Made by a program: the position numbers and the translations under genes. A stretch of 64,000 nt of DNA from an uncultured Candidatus Saccharibacteria bacterium (GTDB lineage: Bacteria > Patescibacteriota > Minisyncoccia > Phycocordibacterales > UBA2100), in assembly GCA_964424265.1 (NCBI GenBank), contig CAYRHX010000005.1, forward strand, positions 7,951 through 71,950, written 5' to 3'. Below, piece by piece: positions 48,620 to 55,127 of the stretch (positions within the stretch are counted from its first letter, which is position 1; each line of letters opens with the position of its first letter). The notes under the pieces are model-generated. The model ran no database searches, was not told the DNA's origin, and worked only from the letters and a program-made list of their open reading frames with translations.

Positions 48620-48746
48620 ACACGTGTGCCGAATTTACTTTAATAATTAATAACATTTATTGCGGCATTCTAGCATGCTATTGGGAGCTTTCAATGCACA
48701 CGAACAGGGCTCATGAACCTATGTTAGAATCTGATTGTAACTCTTT

Positions 48747-49886
48747 ATGGTTGAAGATCTCAAGGATACCTCAAAGAAAGGCACCGAATCACCTGAAATC
48801 CATCTCGATCATTCGCCCGATGATAAGCCGAGCATTCCTGCTCACGAACCTGCGCTCGATCCGCATCCCACCAGAGACAGAGCTATCGAGGATGAAGTCG
48901 CCATCGAAGAGGCTCTGAGTGCCCTTCCCACAGGCGCACGAACATCCAATGTGATCCCAGCCCCAAGTAAGGAGCCCAAGGATCTACGGACCATAGAAGT
49001 AAAGACGCGAGAACAATACCGAGAGGTGATCGCGGCGTTGAAAGAGATCTTTACCGACCCATCAGACCTAGAATCCGAGAGAGGATTCGCCGAGCTTTAT
49101 TTCACGCCAGAGCTCGCGCGCTATTTTCAGATCGTGGGAGAAGTGGACGGCAAGCAACAAACCATTGGGGTGCAGATGATCCGTATCAATCCAAAGGTAC
49201 CCGATGCGATGTATACACCGTACGGCGGTCTCAAATCAGACTACCGAGGCCTCAATGCGTATCCGCAAGCGGCGATTCTGAATGCCGAACTCATGCGACA
49301 AAATGGTGTGAAAGTTGGGTTTAATGATGTTGAAGATCCGGGTCGGATTGTCGCTGCGAATGCATATCCTGATGAAACTCCCGAGGAGATTACATCGCGC
49401 TGCGAAAGGCGGATTAACTTCTTCCGCCGCTCTATGGGCATGTATTTTGTGAATGACCCTGATATACCATATTGCCGACCCGCTTCCGATGATCCAGAAA
49501 AGATCCAGGCGTACGATCTCTTGGGCTTTAGGCCGCTCGATGCAGAAGACGATATGTGGAAAAACACCTTCAATGAAGACAAGACTTCGATATCACTTGA
49601 TGCATATGAAAAGTTCTACCTGGATATGATGCAGCTCGAATATGGTGACAAGAAAGGCGTGCCTTCCAAGGAGGAATTACGATCAACGTATCCGGCGATA
49701 AACGAGTTCTTCGGTTACGTAGATAGAGCTCGCGCGAATAATAAACAATGGGTCTCTCTCCACGCAGAACAGGTTCGCAAAAAGACTTCCCCAAATCTGG
49801 CTGACCAGGTAAGGTTCGACGACCCCAGTCTCAGAGATGAACGGATGGCCAAAGGGAAAATCACAGGTTCTCCTAAGGTCCAATAA
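48747..49886 (+). CDS. hypothetical protein (379 aa)
   Basis: ORF only. Acidic N-terminus, no recognised motif. Confidence 0.35.
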   Translation: MVEDLKDTSKKGTESPEIHLDHSPDDKPSIPAHEPALDPHPTRDRAIEDEVAIEEALSALPTGARTSNVIPAPSKEPKDLRTIEVKTREQYREVIAALKEIFTDPSDLESERGFAELYFTPELARYFQIVGEVDGKQQTIGVQMIRINPKVPDAMYTPYGGLKSDYRGLNAYPQAAILNAELMRQNGVKVGFNDVEDPGRIVAANAYPDETPEEITSRCERRINFFRRSMGMYFVNDPDIPYCRPASDDPEKIQAYDLLGFRPLDAEDDMWKNTFNEDKTSISLDAYEKFYLDMMQLEYGDKKGVPSKEELRSTYPAINEFFGYVDRARANNKQWVSLHAEQVRKKTSPNLADQVRFDDPSLRDERMAKGKITGSPKVQ

Positions 49887-49905
49887 ACCTACGAGAGAAA
49901 ACTCC

Positions 49906-51357
49906 TTACTGAAACCGAAAATTCTTAAATTGCCACGGGTCGGCTTTATCTAAATCTTCGGCAAACCCCTCCTGACGGCCCTTAAGAGGAGTCCAGTCGC
50001 TATACTCCCCCACGAGTGTGCCAAGATACGGGTCCACCACGTCCATCACGCGTTCAAAGTCCATTTCATCCGCCTCGACAACACCCTCTTTTTGATTCTC
50101 AATAATCCACACCATGGCACCCAATACACCCGCAGTTACCTGAAGACCTGTTGCGTTTTGATACGGAGCGAGCTTTCGCGCCTCTTGAATCGTAAGCTGC
50201 GAACCATACCAATACGCCCCCTTCTTGTGTCCCATCAAAAGCACGCCCAGCTCGTCCATACCGTCTTCAATCTCCTCAAGCAATATGCGCTGCTGCGACT
50301 GCAGCTCAGAATTGTTACCGAAACACTCTTCGAGAGAAAGGATGGAGGCATCGCACGAGCGATACGCGTAATGTACCGTTGGACGAAAATTTGCTTTCTT
50401 ACCTTTGCGGAGCGTGTAGTAATCTGCGATGGAGACAGATTCGTTGTGGGTCACGGCTCTCCCCAAGAAATGTCCGTGCCGAGGCGTCCACGTACGCACG
50501 AGAGTGCGGCCACCCGGCCGGTTCAAGTATATGGCTGCGCCGCATCCGTATGGATGCCGCCCTGCATCCGGCGGAATATGCTTCTCGTGCGTGCCCCAGC
50601 CGATCTCGCAAGGCTGGCATACGCCCTCGGAGTGAAAACCGTCGACGGACCACGTGTTTTCAAAGCGCCCGATCACTTTCGGCGTATGCGCGACCTGAGA
50701 ATCATATTCTGCAATATGCACGACGCGAACTCCGAGATTGCGCATAAGCCTTCCCCACTCGATTCGATTCTTCGGTTTCGAGATTTTATACTTCGTGTCT
50801 TTTGCAATCTGAAGCAGAGCGCGCTTCACAAAGTGCGAGACTATACCCGGATTAGCACCATGCCCTACAACAGCAGTCGAACTTTTCTTTTTCTCATCCT
50901 TGAGGACAAGAGCGGTTTCTCGAAGGCCATAATTTGATCGCTCCGTGATTGAGAGATTCGGATCGGTGTAACCACCGGGCCACGGCTCAATGCAGGTGTC
51001 GAGATAGAGAATGTCTCGTTTGCGACAATATTCAATGAGCGCGACCGACGAGACGTTGACCGACAAGTTGAGAAGAAAATCCCCTTTCGAAAGATGCCGC
51101 GAAAGTACCGTTTCGTAATTCTCGCGCACCAACGGCTCGATATAAAAAGGAATACCCTCCTGTATCGCTACATCGCGTCCACGATCATCGGCAGCGATGA
51201 TCGTGATGCGATCTTTAGAAATCCCTATGTGGCGCAGTATCAAAGGAAGCACACCAATGCCGATGGATCCGCACCCGAGCATAAGCAGCCGCCCCGGGAA
51301 ATTAACATGTACTTTGTATGCCGATTTTCTTTCTTTCGATGATTTCTTTTTCTTCAT
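49906..51357 (-). CDS. hss: homospermidine synthase (saccharopine dehydrogenase-like fold)
   Basis: Rossmann loop LLMLGCGSIGIG. Blocks STAVVGHGANPGIVSHFVKRAL, ENTWSVDGFHSEG, VTHNESVSIADY, QNATGLQVTAGVLGAMVW, DPWQFKNF are characteristic of bacterial HSS. Confidence 0.8.
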   Translation of the reverse strand: MKKKKSSKERKSAYKVHVNFPGRLLMLGCGSIGIGVLPLILRHIGISKDRITIIAADDRGRDVAIQEGIPFYIEPLVRENYETVLSRHLSKGDFLLNLSVNVSSVALIEYCRKRDILYLDTCIEPWPGGYTDPNLSITERSNYGLRETALVLKDEKKKSSTAVVGHGANPGIVSHFVKRALLQIAKDTKYKISKPKNRIEWGRLMRNLGVRVVHIAEYDSQVAHTPKVIGRFENTWSVDGFHSEGVCQPCEIGWGTHEKHIPPDAGRHPYGCGAAIYLNRPGGRTLVRTWTPRHGHFLGRAVTHNESVSIADYYTLRKGKKANFRPTVHYAYRSCDASILSLEECFGNNSELQSQQRILLEEIEDGMDELGVLLMGHKKGAYWYGSQLTIQEARKLAPYQNATGLQVTAGVLGAMVWIIENQKEGVVEADEMDFERVMDVVDPYLGTLVGEYSDWTPLKGRQEGFAEDLDKADPWQFKNFRFQ

Positions 51358-53847: not shown

Positions 53848-53955
53848 CCCCCCCCGAAGCCCCCACGACTAAAAGGTTTGGTTTCGCGTGCATAGATACG
53901 CGAAATTATCGCCCCATCAAGAGGTTCTGTCAAAACACAAGTGAGGGTGAGAGAT

Positions 53956-54999
53956 TTATTTCCTAAACAACGAACCGAGAGGATGTTTTTGACGTAGCAC
54001 AGTGCTCGCGAAATATGACGCGATTGCGATCGAGGCGATCTGCGTACCTGCTCCGCCCACAACACCCTTTTCTAGAGAGACATAGGGAAGTGGCTTCTTG
54101 GACACAGAATACGCAGCGCTCCACGCGCGATGTATCCGAATATTGGTTGCCAAGGTGCGCAGTGCGTACCGGCGAATGTTCCTCAGGTGAGGCGAGTGCA
54201 ACTGTGCCTCTGCGCCTTTTGAAGGCTTGTGCACATCGCCATAACCAATAAGAAGACGCCTGTCCGATGTTATCTTCCCATAATGGTAAGACTGCCTCTC
54301 GTCGTCAAAAAACATGGATTTTCCAGCACGTCGCAATCCGCGTATTTTTTTTATCGAAAGCGGGCGCGTCACGCAGATTGTCGTTATGTAATTTGTAAGA
54401 CTTCTGTGTTTCAGTGACGTCCCGAGCGCATACGTAACATGCCCGAAACGGATCGTTCCTTGCGGGGTTATCGCTACACCATCCTTTACGCGTAGTATCG
54501 GAGTGTTTTCATAAATCATCACACCTCTCCCGCGGAGATACTGCGCCATCCCCTGGATGAATTTAAGTGGATTTACAGAAATACTCTTTTCGAGATATTC
54601 GCCCTTCGAGAGTTCATTCCTAAAAAAAGTAAGGCTATGATTTTTATACTCACAGACAAGTTTGCCATCTTTAATCAAGCGGCGCACCTCGCGCTGCGCC
54701 TGCTTAAGGGCGCGCGCATAATTAGATGCAGCGCGATGTCCATGTATTTTCGCCAGTATATCGATAGGCGCTGTCTCGAGTTGAGCTGTCAGCATTCCCG
54801 CTGATTGTCCGGTGGATCCAGATCCAATGAAGCCCCGTTCGACTATCGTGATATTTCGTATTCTCTTTTTCATGAGGAAATGAGCGACGAAGAGGCCCGT
54901 TACCCCTCCTCCGATTATCAGATAGCGAGTTTTGTGATCTCCGATAAGACCCTTGCCCGGCTTATATCCAGTGTTTTTCCAGAATGTTTGTTTTTTCAT
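53956..54999 (-). CDS. FAD-dependent oxidoreductase (DAO family)
   Basis: YLIIGGGVTGLFVAHFL dinucleotide-binding motif. DAO-like length. Confidence 0.7.
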   Translation of the reverse strand: MKKQTFWKNTGYKPGKGLIGDHKTRYLIIGGGVTGLFVAHFLMKKRIRNITIVERGFIGSGSTGQSAGMLTAQLETAPIDILAKIHGHRAASNYARALKQAQREVRRLIKDGKLVCEYKNHSLTFFRNELSKGEYLEKSISVNPLKFIQGMAQYLRGRGVMIYENTPILRVKDGVAITPQGTIRFGHVTYALGTSLKHRSLTNYITTICVTRPLSIKKIRGLRRAGKSMFFDDERQSYHYGKITSDRRLLIGYGDVHKPSKGAEAQLHSPHLRNIRRYALRTLATNIRIHRAWSAAYSVSKKPLPYVSLEKGVVGGAGTQIASIAIASYFASTVLRQKHPLGSLFRK

Positions 55000-55127
55000 G
55001 AAAATTCCTAGTTGGCCATTATGACATGAAATTGCCATTAACGCAAACAGCCGCACTTTTCCTTTACCTTATAATTCCACGGTCGTAGTATTATAAGGTT
55101 AGTCTATAAATATGTGGAACGAGAGCT

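Follow-up and report, generated by a model that had tools for sequence, protein, structure and literature searches.

A putative polyamine gene island between atpB and atpE in Candidatus Kaiserbacteria, at a junction that resembles a transcription boundary

The 64,000-nucleotide stretch of contig CAYRHX010000005.1 analysed here (the window), which belongs to a bacterium of Candidatus Kaiserbacteria (Patescibacteria), carries a complete F1Fo ATP synthase gene set in which atpB, encoding subunit a of Fo, is separated from atpE, encoding subunit c: the stop codon of atpB and the start codon of atpE are 6,508 nt apart, with five genes in this gap. These intervening genes are probably an old accessory island for polyamine metabolism, devoid of mobility genes, which is parked at a junction that already resembled a transcription boundary and occurs in a subset of Candidatus Kaiserbacteria. 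Together they would form a module for the synthesis, modification and transport of polyamines. Four of them run in the direction of the ATP synthase genes and encode, in order from atpB, a flavin adenine dinucleotide (FAD)-dependent oxidoreductase of the DAO family, a short protein related to homospermidine synthase (HSS), a major facilitator superfamily (MFS) transporter and a canonical HSS; the fifth, on the opposite strand, encodes a protein with a predicted GNAT fold (Table 1).

All the open reading frames (ORFs) proposed in a first-pass annotation of this DNA, which was made from the letters alone, were recovered with the same coordinates in our ORF map and in Pfam and NCBIfam searches, and the identities given to the genes were right in the main. 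Eight core subunits of the enzyme are encoded, of which a, c and delta were identified by Pfam and NCBIfam in the window and b, alpha, gamma, beta and epsilon by Pfam on an independently assembled contig (L081). The Pfam match of the atpB product spans positions 2–217 of the 217 in the ATP-synt_A profile, and its translation contains the essential-Arg motif SLSFRLFGNILAGE / LSFRLFGNILAGE in the penultimate helix of subunit a. The true atpB start is probably the ATG at 55922, giving 264 aa, as called on L081, and an exact-sequence search with the longer 271-aa ORF gave no match because gene callers had chosen this downstream ATG; that of the oxidoreductase is probably the ATG at 54999, giving 347 aa, in line with orthologues of 348–352 aa. 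Four contigs from different samples or runs (L081–L084; ERZ27247820, ERR3094295, ERZ27247817 and ERR3094293) have an identical gene order, with proteins 98–100% identical. Since four independent assemblies agree, an assembly chimera is ruled out and the arrangement is not an artefact.

The atpB–atpE junction in related genomes

To place this arrangement, relatives were gathered as one-genome-per-species contigs found via atpB, on which the window proteins were located by tblastn. They are metagenome-assembled genomes of Candidatus Kaiserbacteria and other Paceibacteria/Parcubacteria, the best atpB relative (L001) being 87% identical, and they share the conserved order PfkB kinase, AdoHcy hydrolase, alpha/beta hydrolase, atpB, atpE, F, H, A, G, D, C. 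In all 37 loci where both genes were visible, atpB was followed directly by atpE. The spacer between them was 33–638 nt long (median ~105 nt) in 36 of these loci, the 37th value being an extrapolation artefact, and tblastn placed no island gene within 10 kb in any of the 37. The usual order is thus the one that the first-pass annotation had assumed, with atpB immediately upstream of atpE. Contiguity is the rule in the group, and the arrangement in the window, which departs from it, is therefore derived. The atpE-F-H-A-G-orf106-D-C block (43031..48619, minus strand) keeps the synteny of the 37 relatives. No second atpB or atpE is present within the 64 kb, so that a further atpB copy beside atpE, which had been raised as a possibility beforehand, has no counterpart there.

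The split is nevertheless not unique to the window, since related inserts occupy the atpB|atpE junction in at least three other Kaiserbacteria lineages. In one of these (L085), atpB is followed by two small ORFs, DAO, an intact HSS-like gene (413 aa), MFS, a 506-aa GNAT gene, an opposite-strand homologue of the 379-aa gene of the window, and atpE. A second lineage (L097/L098) has a minimal insert of 3.8 kb, with the order atpB, DAO, HSS-like, MFS, atpE. The third is represented by the contig encoding P0007, an HSS-like protein of 64% identity, where the order is HSS-like, MFS, an opposite-strand 363-aa gene, P-type ATPase, GNAT and atpE-F-H-A-G. The DAO orthologues found in the same position are 68% (L085) and 62% (L098) identical to the window protein. 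These contexts define the core of the island as DAO, HSS-like and MFS, in that order, and mark the canonical HSS and the GNAT-type genes as variable cargo. The synteny comparison suggested beforehand thus bears out the split as derived with respect to most relatives, but also reveals that it is partly a shared, old state.

Three island-free relatives have long atpB–atpE spacers of ~400–640 nt (L011, 10750-11265; L010, 10822-11220; L016, 6025-6664), and that of L011 contains an unrelated 136-aa ORF, suggesting that the junction accepts other inserts too. Small variable inserts are also found at the atpG|atpD and atpA|atpG junctions of relatives, and Kaiserbacteria atp operons seem to be generally permissive at gene boundaries. 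In the window the atpG|atpD position is taken by orf106 (106 aa), which has no Pfam or NCBIfam match, lies 18 nt from atpG and 5 nt from atpD, and has homologues of 41–43% identity in the same position in L002 and L016; elsewhere among the relatives the atpG–atpD gap ranges from 45 nt to 1.8 kb, with a NUDIX gene there in L085. Operon junctions may thus serve as parking places for accessory genes in bacteria of the Candidate Phyla Radiation (CPR).

Split atp clusters are well known, and the separation of atpB from atpE is not in itself surprising for that reason. In Helicobacter pylori atpB and atpE are scattered away from atpFHAGDC, in alphaproteobacteria atpIBEFF' is separate from atpHAGDC, and cyanobacteria and chloroplasts have two atp clusters. 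The window resembles these systems in that the subunit genes are non-contiguous and that subunit a may use a transcription unit other than that of subunit c and F1. It differs in that the two halves have the same orientation and lie 6.5 kb apart, with an accessory island at one junction and with contiguous genes in close relatives. What sets this case apart is an accessory island docked at a conserved overlap of promoter-like element and stop codon, with contiguous close relatives and variant cargo elsewhere. Our literature search turned up no description of a split atp operon for Patescibacteria.

Promoter-like elements flanking the island

Immediately upstream of atpE, about 47 nt from its ATG, lies a sigma-70-type promoter-like element, which we designate P_atpE and which scores 10/12 with an upstream TG in a generic promoter scan. 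It is the sole match in the window, on either strand, to the pattern TTGAnn-N12-15-TGnTAnn[AT]T. Of 30 relatives, nine have the full pattern upstream of atpE, where 0.003 matches per 110 nt would be expected; the extended -10 taken alone is present in 13 of the 30, against 0.018 expected. Alignment of the region upstream of atpE from the window, L085, L098, L003, L007 and L016 gives a common block, GCATTGAAA, 13 nt, TGCTAG(A/T)AT, ~10 nt and ATTAATTATT, corresponding to a -35 element, a spacer of 16–17 nt, an extended -10 and an AT-rich leader; many island-free genomes carry this block. In several of these, among them L001, L002, L004, L008 and L013, the -35 element shares its TTGA with the atpB stop codon (CAT TGA). 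In the three island-bearing genomes for which DNA was available (the window, L085 and L098), the block is still immediately upstream of atpE, kilobases away from atpB, and the island fills precisely the interval from the atpB stop to P_atpE. Because a conserved element precedes atpE and overlaps the atpB stop in several island-free genomes, the atpB|atpE junction looks like a pre-existing transcription boundary, and this would explain why it tolerates cargo.

The statement in the first-pass annotation that atpB is separated from the rest of Fo is overstated in this respect, given that the promoter-like element immediately precedes atpE both in island-bearing genomes and in many that lack the island. 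A second element, the extended -10-like TGCTAGTAT upstream of atpB, may serve as the promoter of that gene, in which case the leader would be very short; L002 has the identical element at the corresponding place and L017 and L085 have similar ones, although atpB N-termini vary in length and the start positions are extrapolated. From this arrangement we infer that atpE-F-H-A-G-D-C could be driven by its own conserved promoter-like element and atpB by its own extended -10-like element. As each half keeps its own control elements, expression of the ATP synthase should be essentially unaffected by the island; the split probably costs the enzyme nothing, with atpE-C appearing to own a conserved promoter. 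On the opposite strand, the extended -10-like TGTTAGAAT may be a promoter element of the GNAT-like gene.

Between P_atpE and the atpE start codon, the AT-rich leader motif TTATTAATTATTAA of the window has its counterpart, ATTAATTATT or close variants of it, at the same place in L085, L098, L016, L007, L017, L012 and L013, and may act as a translational enhancer for the high-copy c subunit. In Escherichia coli, atpE has a translational enhancer, there are internal atp promoters, and c is the subunit that must be expressed most strongly. A dedicated element directly upstream of atpE, together with an AT/U-rich leader, would fit this high demand for c. The element described here differs in that it resembles a complete promoter, overlaps the stop codon of atpB in several island-free genomes and has been conserved across a lineage of CPR bacteria. 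The consensus TTGAAA-N16-TGnTAGAAT, overlapping a stop codon, is therewith offered as a candidate promoter consensus for operons of uncultivated CPR bacteria.

Several points weigh against the interpretation of the junction as a transcription boundary. The generic scan of the region returned 11 promoter-like sites, against 9.5 in shuffled sequence; the nine relatives with the full motif are a minority of the 30 and are mostly the closer ones; and the assignment of P_atpE as a promoter is a consensus match that convinces solely through its lineage-specific conservation.

The space between atpB and the first island gene bears on a different explanation, in which the island genes need co-transcription with the Fo a subunit and the position itself is under selection, as could be the case if polyamine export driven by the proton-motive force, or pH/cation homeostasis, were tied to ATP synthase assembly. 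This space holds promoter-like sites and a 16-bp hairpin that lacks a U-tract, overlaps the promoter-like TCCACA-N17-TATAAT (55118-55090) and lies in a segment (54990-55135) with an RNA folding z of -1.8. Four co-directional island genes following atpB, with this hairpin in place of a canonical terminator, would suit such coupling, as would the retention of the position in four diverged lineages and the addition of a P-type cation ATPase in one variant. MFS transporters are typically proton-coupled, which also speaks for it. However, most Kaiserbacteria have no island at the junction, both the HSS-like/MFS pair and the GNAT-like gene are also found in unrelated surroundings, the first island gene is immediately preceded by promoter-like elements, and the unrelated small inserts at atpG|atpD and atpA|atpG suggest an operon that is permissive in general, not a specific coupling. 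The island may be co-transcribed with atpB but need not be, and we regard selection for coupling to Fo as distinctly unlikely. No canonical terminators beyond chance expectation were found around the island, and an Rfam search of 42500-57500 at E ≤ 1 gave zero matches, with no riboswitch or known RNA detected.

Age and origin of the island

A host tree was built by neighbour-joining from seven flanking and housekeeping proteins (1,898 columns, 100 bootstraps). In this tree the sister of the window genome is L001 (98% bootstrap) and that of L085 is L013 (100% bootstrap), both of them without the island; L098 is placed elsewhere. Between the window and L085 or L098, island proteins are 54–82% identical. 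The same comparison gives 48–84% for host proteins (ahcY, atpB, atpA, atpF, hydrolase and kinase) and 92–97% for the 75-aa atpE product. The island genes have a G+C content (GC) of 0.46–0.51 and a third-position value (GC3) of 0.49–0.57, set against a window background of 0.513 ± 0.034 and 0.546 ± 0.065, respectively; the examination of GC and codon usage proposed with the first pass thus yields no foreign signature. Since the carriers are not each other's closest relatives, their divergence is host-like and their composition is native, the island appears to be old and patchily distributed, and a recent horizontal acquisition is unsupported.

Such an acquisition, by which a foreign or mobile block of 6.5 kb would have disrupted an intact atp operon in this lineage only, might be read from the absence of the island in L001, the closest genome by atpB, ahcY and atpA (87–90% identical), and from a sliding-window GC of 0.46–0.50 in the island against 0.52–0.56 in the atp genes. 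The per-gene GC and GC3 values nevertheless lie inside the window background, and three other lineages carry this core at the corresponding junction, diverged as deeply as the host genes. Moreover, the best homologues of the island HSS are Kaiserbacteria proteins. The island ORFs of the window, L085 and L098 include no integrase, recombinase or transposase gene, and no flanking direct or inverted repeat longer than chance was found; the only item shared by the two ends is a 6-nt box resembling a His-stop and a -35 element. No tRNA adjoins the island, the sole one in the window being at 62411-62482. A patchy distribution is therefore the one feature of a mobile island that we observe, with integrase, flanking repeat or tRNA, and deviant composition all missing, and we consider recent acquisition very improbable.

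The patchy distribution could also have arisen if the junction were a hot spot for recombination or integration that the module, or parts of it, entered several times. Carriers that are sister to non-carriers on the host tree, the variable cargo, the other inserts in the same spacer (the 136-aa ORF of L011 and the 400–640-nt spacers of L010 and L016), the lack of deletion scars in island-free genomes and the occurrence of the box CA(C/T)T(A/G)A at both the atpB stop and the -35 of P_atpE are all in keeping with repeated insertion. Yet the divergence of the island genes parallels that of the hosts, the weak topology available, in which the HSS-like and DAO proteins of L085 and L098 are marginally nearer to one another, agrees with the host tree, no recombinase or att site was found, and DAO, HSS-like and MFS keep an identical order in all variants. 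Independent repeated insertion is, on this balance, improbable.

An old accessory island at a boundary-like junction is the explanation that we retain, and here too some evidence points the other way. One ancient gain followed by repeated clean loss and several old gains would both fit the data; no island-gene remnants were detected in the longer spacers of L010, L011 and L016, where searches returned only noise at E > 0.09; and the host tree is a simple neighbour-joining tree built from genes that flank the island.

Predicted polyamine functions of the island genes

The canonical HSS gene is the most securely identified part of the cargo. Its 483-aa product aligns over residues 16–481 with solved HSS structures, those of the Legionella, Blastochloris and Pseudomonas enzymes, at E values of 1e-148 to 2ph5 and 4.9e-148 to 4plp. 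In the Blastochloris viridis enzyme (BvHSS), the substrate-binding and catalytic residues are N162, E210, W229, E237, H296, E298, Y323 and D361 (PMC4725965), to which the numbering of the 4plp chain has a constant offset of +2. The corresponding residues of the island protein, N169, E217, W236, E244, H304, E306, Y330 and D368, are identical at all eight positions, and the eight are invariant among 15 Kaiserbacteria-type HSS sequences. By these matches the protein is a bona fide HSS, as the first-pass annotation had called it, and its predicted reaction, the formation of homospermidine from putrescine, is well supported by sequence.

The closest homologues of this protein (72–74% identical) are Kaiserbacteria genes at another conserved locus, between UDG and MGMT/PDDEXK/MgtC, and none of these usual neighbours (UDG, MGMT, PDDEXK, MgtC) is present in the 64-kb window. 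Because its nearest homologues occupy this different Kaiserbacteria locus, the island HSS appears to be of native origin and to have reached the island by relocation or duplication. At the UDG/MGMT/PDDEXK/MgtC locus of one Candidatus Kaiserbacteria contig (L090, MFKT01000015, 8392-11455) there are two adjacent, divergent, full-length HSS-type genes of 476 and 484 aa, which are 50% and 72% identical to the window HSS by tblastn. In one Candidatus Kaiserbacteria genome, hss is reported to form a cluster with the gene of a pyruvoyl ornithine decarboxylase, SpeDC, whose activity was validated biochemically (Li et al. 2023, PMC10407285). That cluster concerns the same group and a bacterial HSS, and supports homospermidine as a Kaiserbacteria polyamine; it differs in that hss there is divergent from the pyruvoyl ornithine decarboxylase gene, whereas here it lies inside an atp operon and no SpeD homologue was identified in the island.

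The second core gene had been described beforehand as a truncated HSS-like paralogue, but its product belongs to a separate family of ~410 aa (about 400–425 aa) and the reading frame is shifted by one extra G in a run of nine. More than 226 homologues are found in Parcubacteria and in the DPANN archaea (Nano-, Woese-, Pace- and Micrarchaeota), some of which are labelled in their sources as "saccharopine dehydrogenase NADP-binding domain-containing" or "homospermidine synthase". An exhaustive profile search returned 239 cluster representatives (50% identity) at E ≤ 1e-3, of which 47 were at E ≤ 1e-30; orthologues in other Kaiserbacteria-type contigs are 80% identical to the window protein. The window protein itself has no NCBIfam match and a Pfam Sacchrp_dh_C match just at the cutoff, and our literature search found no paper on this family.

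By sequence the family is a distant relative of both HSS and carboxyspermidine dehydrogenase (CASDH), which its profile matches in the Protein Data Bank (PDB) at E 2e-7 and 5e-7, respectively; hhalign aligns family and HSS over 288 columns (96% probability, E 4.4e-9). Each of the eight catalytic residues of HSS has a counterpart in the family (N144, E169, W185, E193, H245, E247, Y263 and D302 in P0003 numbering), and these are invariant in 27 short-family sequences. Since they align, an HSS-like, NAD-dependent aminobutyl-transfer chemistry would be expected. An AlphaFold2 (AF2) model with a mean predicted local distance difference test score (pLDDT) of 85.7 has its top Foldseek matches in CASDH (1e-15), lysine dehydrogenase and HSS (1.6e-13). 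Compared with bacterial HSS (4PLP, 2PH5, 6Y87; PMC4725965), to which the 483-aa island protein corresponds over its full length, the short family shares the fold and the eight residues but is ~70 residues shorter and has Val in place of Tyr-325. The short gene thus falls outside HSS as delimited by a length of ~470–480 aa together with significant family membership, and it belongs to a distinct family instead of being a truncated copy of HSS; nor has a deletion shortened the window copy.

The window copy, as sequenced, lacks an intact frame through the NAD-binding GxGxxG motif. Deleting one G of the G9 run yields an uninterrupted 413-aa ORF that begins with the ATG at 53893 and has an N-terminus, MHAKPNLLVVGASGGVANALLHHM, typical of the family. 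All four independent assemblies show the run of nine, and in relatives these residues are encoded by codons that form no homopolymer. Either the gene has died recently, or it is phase-variable, or the run is a systematic sequencing error; the gene may be off or dead in this genome through G9, in which case the canonical HSS presumably supplies homospermidine.

Genes directly adjacent to those of the short family, in 70 genome or metagenome loci, include MFS genes (16 loci), a second Sacchrp_dh-family enzyme (13), DAO (7) and GNAT (3). In seven distant metagenome loci (L105, L108, L146, L151, L152, L154 and L155) the short HSS-like gene is followed by a conserved Sacchrp_dh-family gene of ~383 aa whose product is 22–28% identical to a CASDH-like protein, often with a 192-aa flavodoxin-like/FMN-reductase-like gene upstream; these members may be of DPANN type. 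A contig that also carries cytochrome oxidase genes (L088, CAZUVH010000003, 8444-11242) pairs a canonical HSS gene with a short HSS-like one, both intact and divergently transcribed, with no atp context.

The divergent gene, listed as an unknown in the first-pass annotation, encodes a protein that is modelled by AF2 with a pLDDT of 81, rising above 90 for core residues ~78–340, and consists of a disordered N-terminus (residues 1–72) and a core of ~260 aa. Foldseek gave 76 PDB matches at E ≤ 1e-3, and nearly all of the 50 best are GNAT-family acetyltransferases with target TM-scores of 0.6–0.74, including Bacillus subtilis PaiA and many SpeG spermidine N-acetyltransferases (E 2e-5 to 6e-4, probability 1.0). 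According to this model the protein has a GNAT acetyltransferase fold. Neither Pfam nor NCBIfam matches the window protein; among the 23 homologues detected, none has a Pfam domain above threshold, and weak Acetyltransf_1 matches occur in 6 of 23 family members (best E 0.0019). Members of the family adjoin a CASDH/CASDC-like pair (L094), a 245-aa GNAT (L095 and L096) and the 506-aa GNAT of L085. From fold and genomic context, a polyamine N-acyltransferase is our best guess for its function. Two of the homologues (P0124 and P0126) are 558–564 aa long, with an extra C-terminal domain of ~180 aa absent from the window protein.

For the remaining core proteins, the oxidoreductase matches PDB entries only in its N-terminal FAD motif, to glycine and sarcosine oxidases, and probably oxidises an amine, while the MFS protein probably moves a polyamine. 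In B. subtilis, blt-bltD pairs an MFS polyamine/multidrug exporter with an adjacent spermidine acetyltransferase gene. The island likewise combines an MFS gene with a GNAT-fold protein in a polyamine context, and the best structural matches of the latter include PaiA and SpeG. The GNAT-like protein differs from these in being about twice their size, with a disordered N-terminus, a C-terminal extension and sub-threshold Pfam GNAT matches, and its gene is convergent to the biosynthetic genes.

From these comparisons we infer what the oxidoreductase, the MFS transporter, the GNAT-like protein and the short HSS-like enzyme may act on. The core would most likely make or convert a homospermidine-type polyamine and move it across the membrane, with lineage-specific cargo added downstream: in the window the relocated canonical HSS and the GNAT-fold protein, probably a polyamine N-acetyltransferase, and elsewhere GNAT genes or a P-type ATPase. 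Three observations weigh against this assignment: the fold of the short enzyme is as close to CASDH as to HSS; the presence of both genes intact in L088 argues that HSS and the short enzyme are not simply redundant; and the substrate specificity of a GNAT protein is unreadable from its fold.

A bolder combination of these observations would make the short family a new class of NAD-dependent polyamine synthase and the main triamine route of ultra-small CPR bacteria and of DPANN archaea, forming homospermidine or a new aminobutyl-transfer product within a conserved three-gene module with a DAO-type oxidase and an MFS transporter, and would take the docking at atpB as deliberate co-expression with Fo and the G8/G9 tract as a switch for phase variation. 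Taken together, these propositions seem unlikely to us, and we keep to the old accessory island parked at a boundary-like junction. Two by-products of the analysis may outweigh the split itself: an uncharacterised and highly conserved HSS-like family, spread over CPR and DPANN and carrying all the HSS catalytic residues, and a small new GNAT-fold family tied to polyamine genes are direct targets for the biochemical mapping of polyamine pathways in these organisms.

Table 1. Genes and sequence elements at the ATP synthase locus, in window coordinates
Feature	Coordinates	Strand	Basis and remarks
atpB (Fo subunit a)	55128..55943	-	Pfam ATP-synt_A 1.9e-43; NCBIfam TIGR01131 above cutoff
DAO-family FAD-dependent amine oxidoreductase	53956..55056	-	Pfam DAO 4.1e-27; core island gene 1
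Short HSS-like gene, frameshifted	52651..53893 as repaired gene; 398-aa ORF 52651-53847	-	Weak Sacchrp_dh; core island gene 2
MFS transporter	51420..52643	-	Pfam MFS_1 1.4e-28; core island gene 3
Homospermidine synthase (HSS), 483 aa	49906..51357	-	Sacchrp_dh_NADP and Sacchrp_dh_C; variable cargo
Divergent GNAT-fold protein (predicted), 379 aa	48747..49886	+	No Pfam match; convergent with HSS, divergent from atpE
atpE	48392-48619	-	Pfam ATP-synt_C
atpF	47921-48370	-	ORF, Pfam
atpH	47504-47893	-	Pfam OSCP
atpA	45929-47500	-	ORF, Pfam
atpG	45005-45925	-	ORF, Pfam
orf106	44666-44986	-	ORF between atpG and atpD
atpD	43287-44660	-	ORF, Pfam
atpC	43031-43285	-	ORF, Pfam
P_atpE, sigma-70-type promoter-like element	48667..48694	-	-35 TTGAAA (48694-48689), 16-nt spacer, extended -10 TGcTAGAAT (48675-48667)
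AT-rich 5'-leader motif TTATTAATTATTAA	48640..48653	-	Between P_atpE and atpE start codon
Extended -10-like element TGCTAGTAT	55934..55942	-	Motif scan; 11 nt upstream of atpB ATG
Extended -10-like element TGTTAGAAT	48722..48730	+	Motif scan; 17 nt upstream of GNAT-like gene ATG
16-bp inverted repeat (hairpin), no U-tract	55066..55099	-	Just downstream of atpB stop
G9 homopolymer (C9 on + strand)	53847..53855	-	Inside GASGGV Rossmann-motif codons; +1 frameshift

Other features of the ATP synthase locus

Two subunits of the enzyme are short, with the same lengths in relatives. The atpH product, delta, has only 129 aa and matches positions 53–168 of the 172 in the OSCP profile, so that the usual N-terminal part is missing. 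The 84-aa epsilon subunit encoded by atpC matches only ATP-synt_DE_N, the N-terminal beta-sandwich domain, and its C-terminal inhibitory helices appear to be absent. Directly downstream of atpC, on the same strand (39754-42954), lies a gene for a 1,066-aa protein of secreted or surface type, with a signal-like N-terminus and weak Pfam matches to PG_binding_1 and Laminin_G_3 as well as faint ones to PKD/PKD_4.

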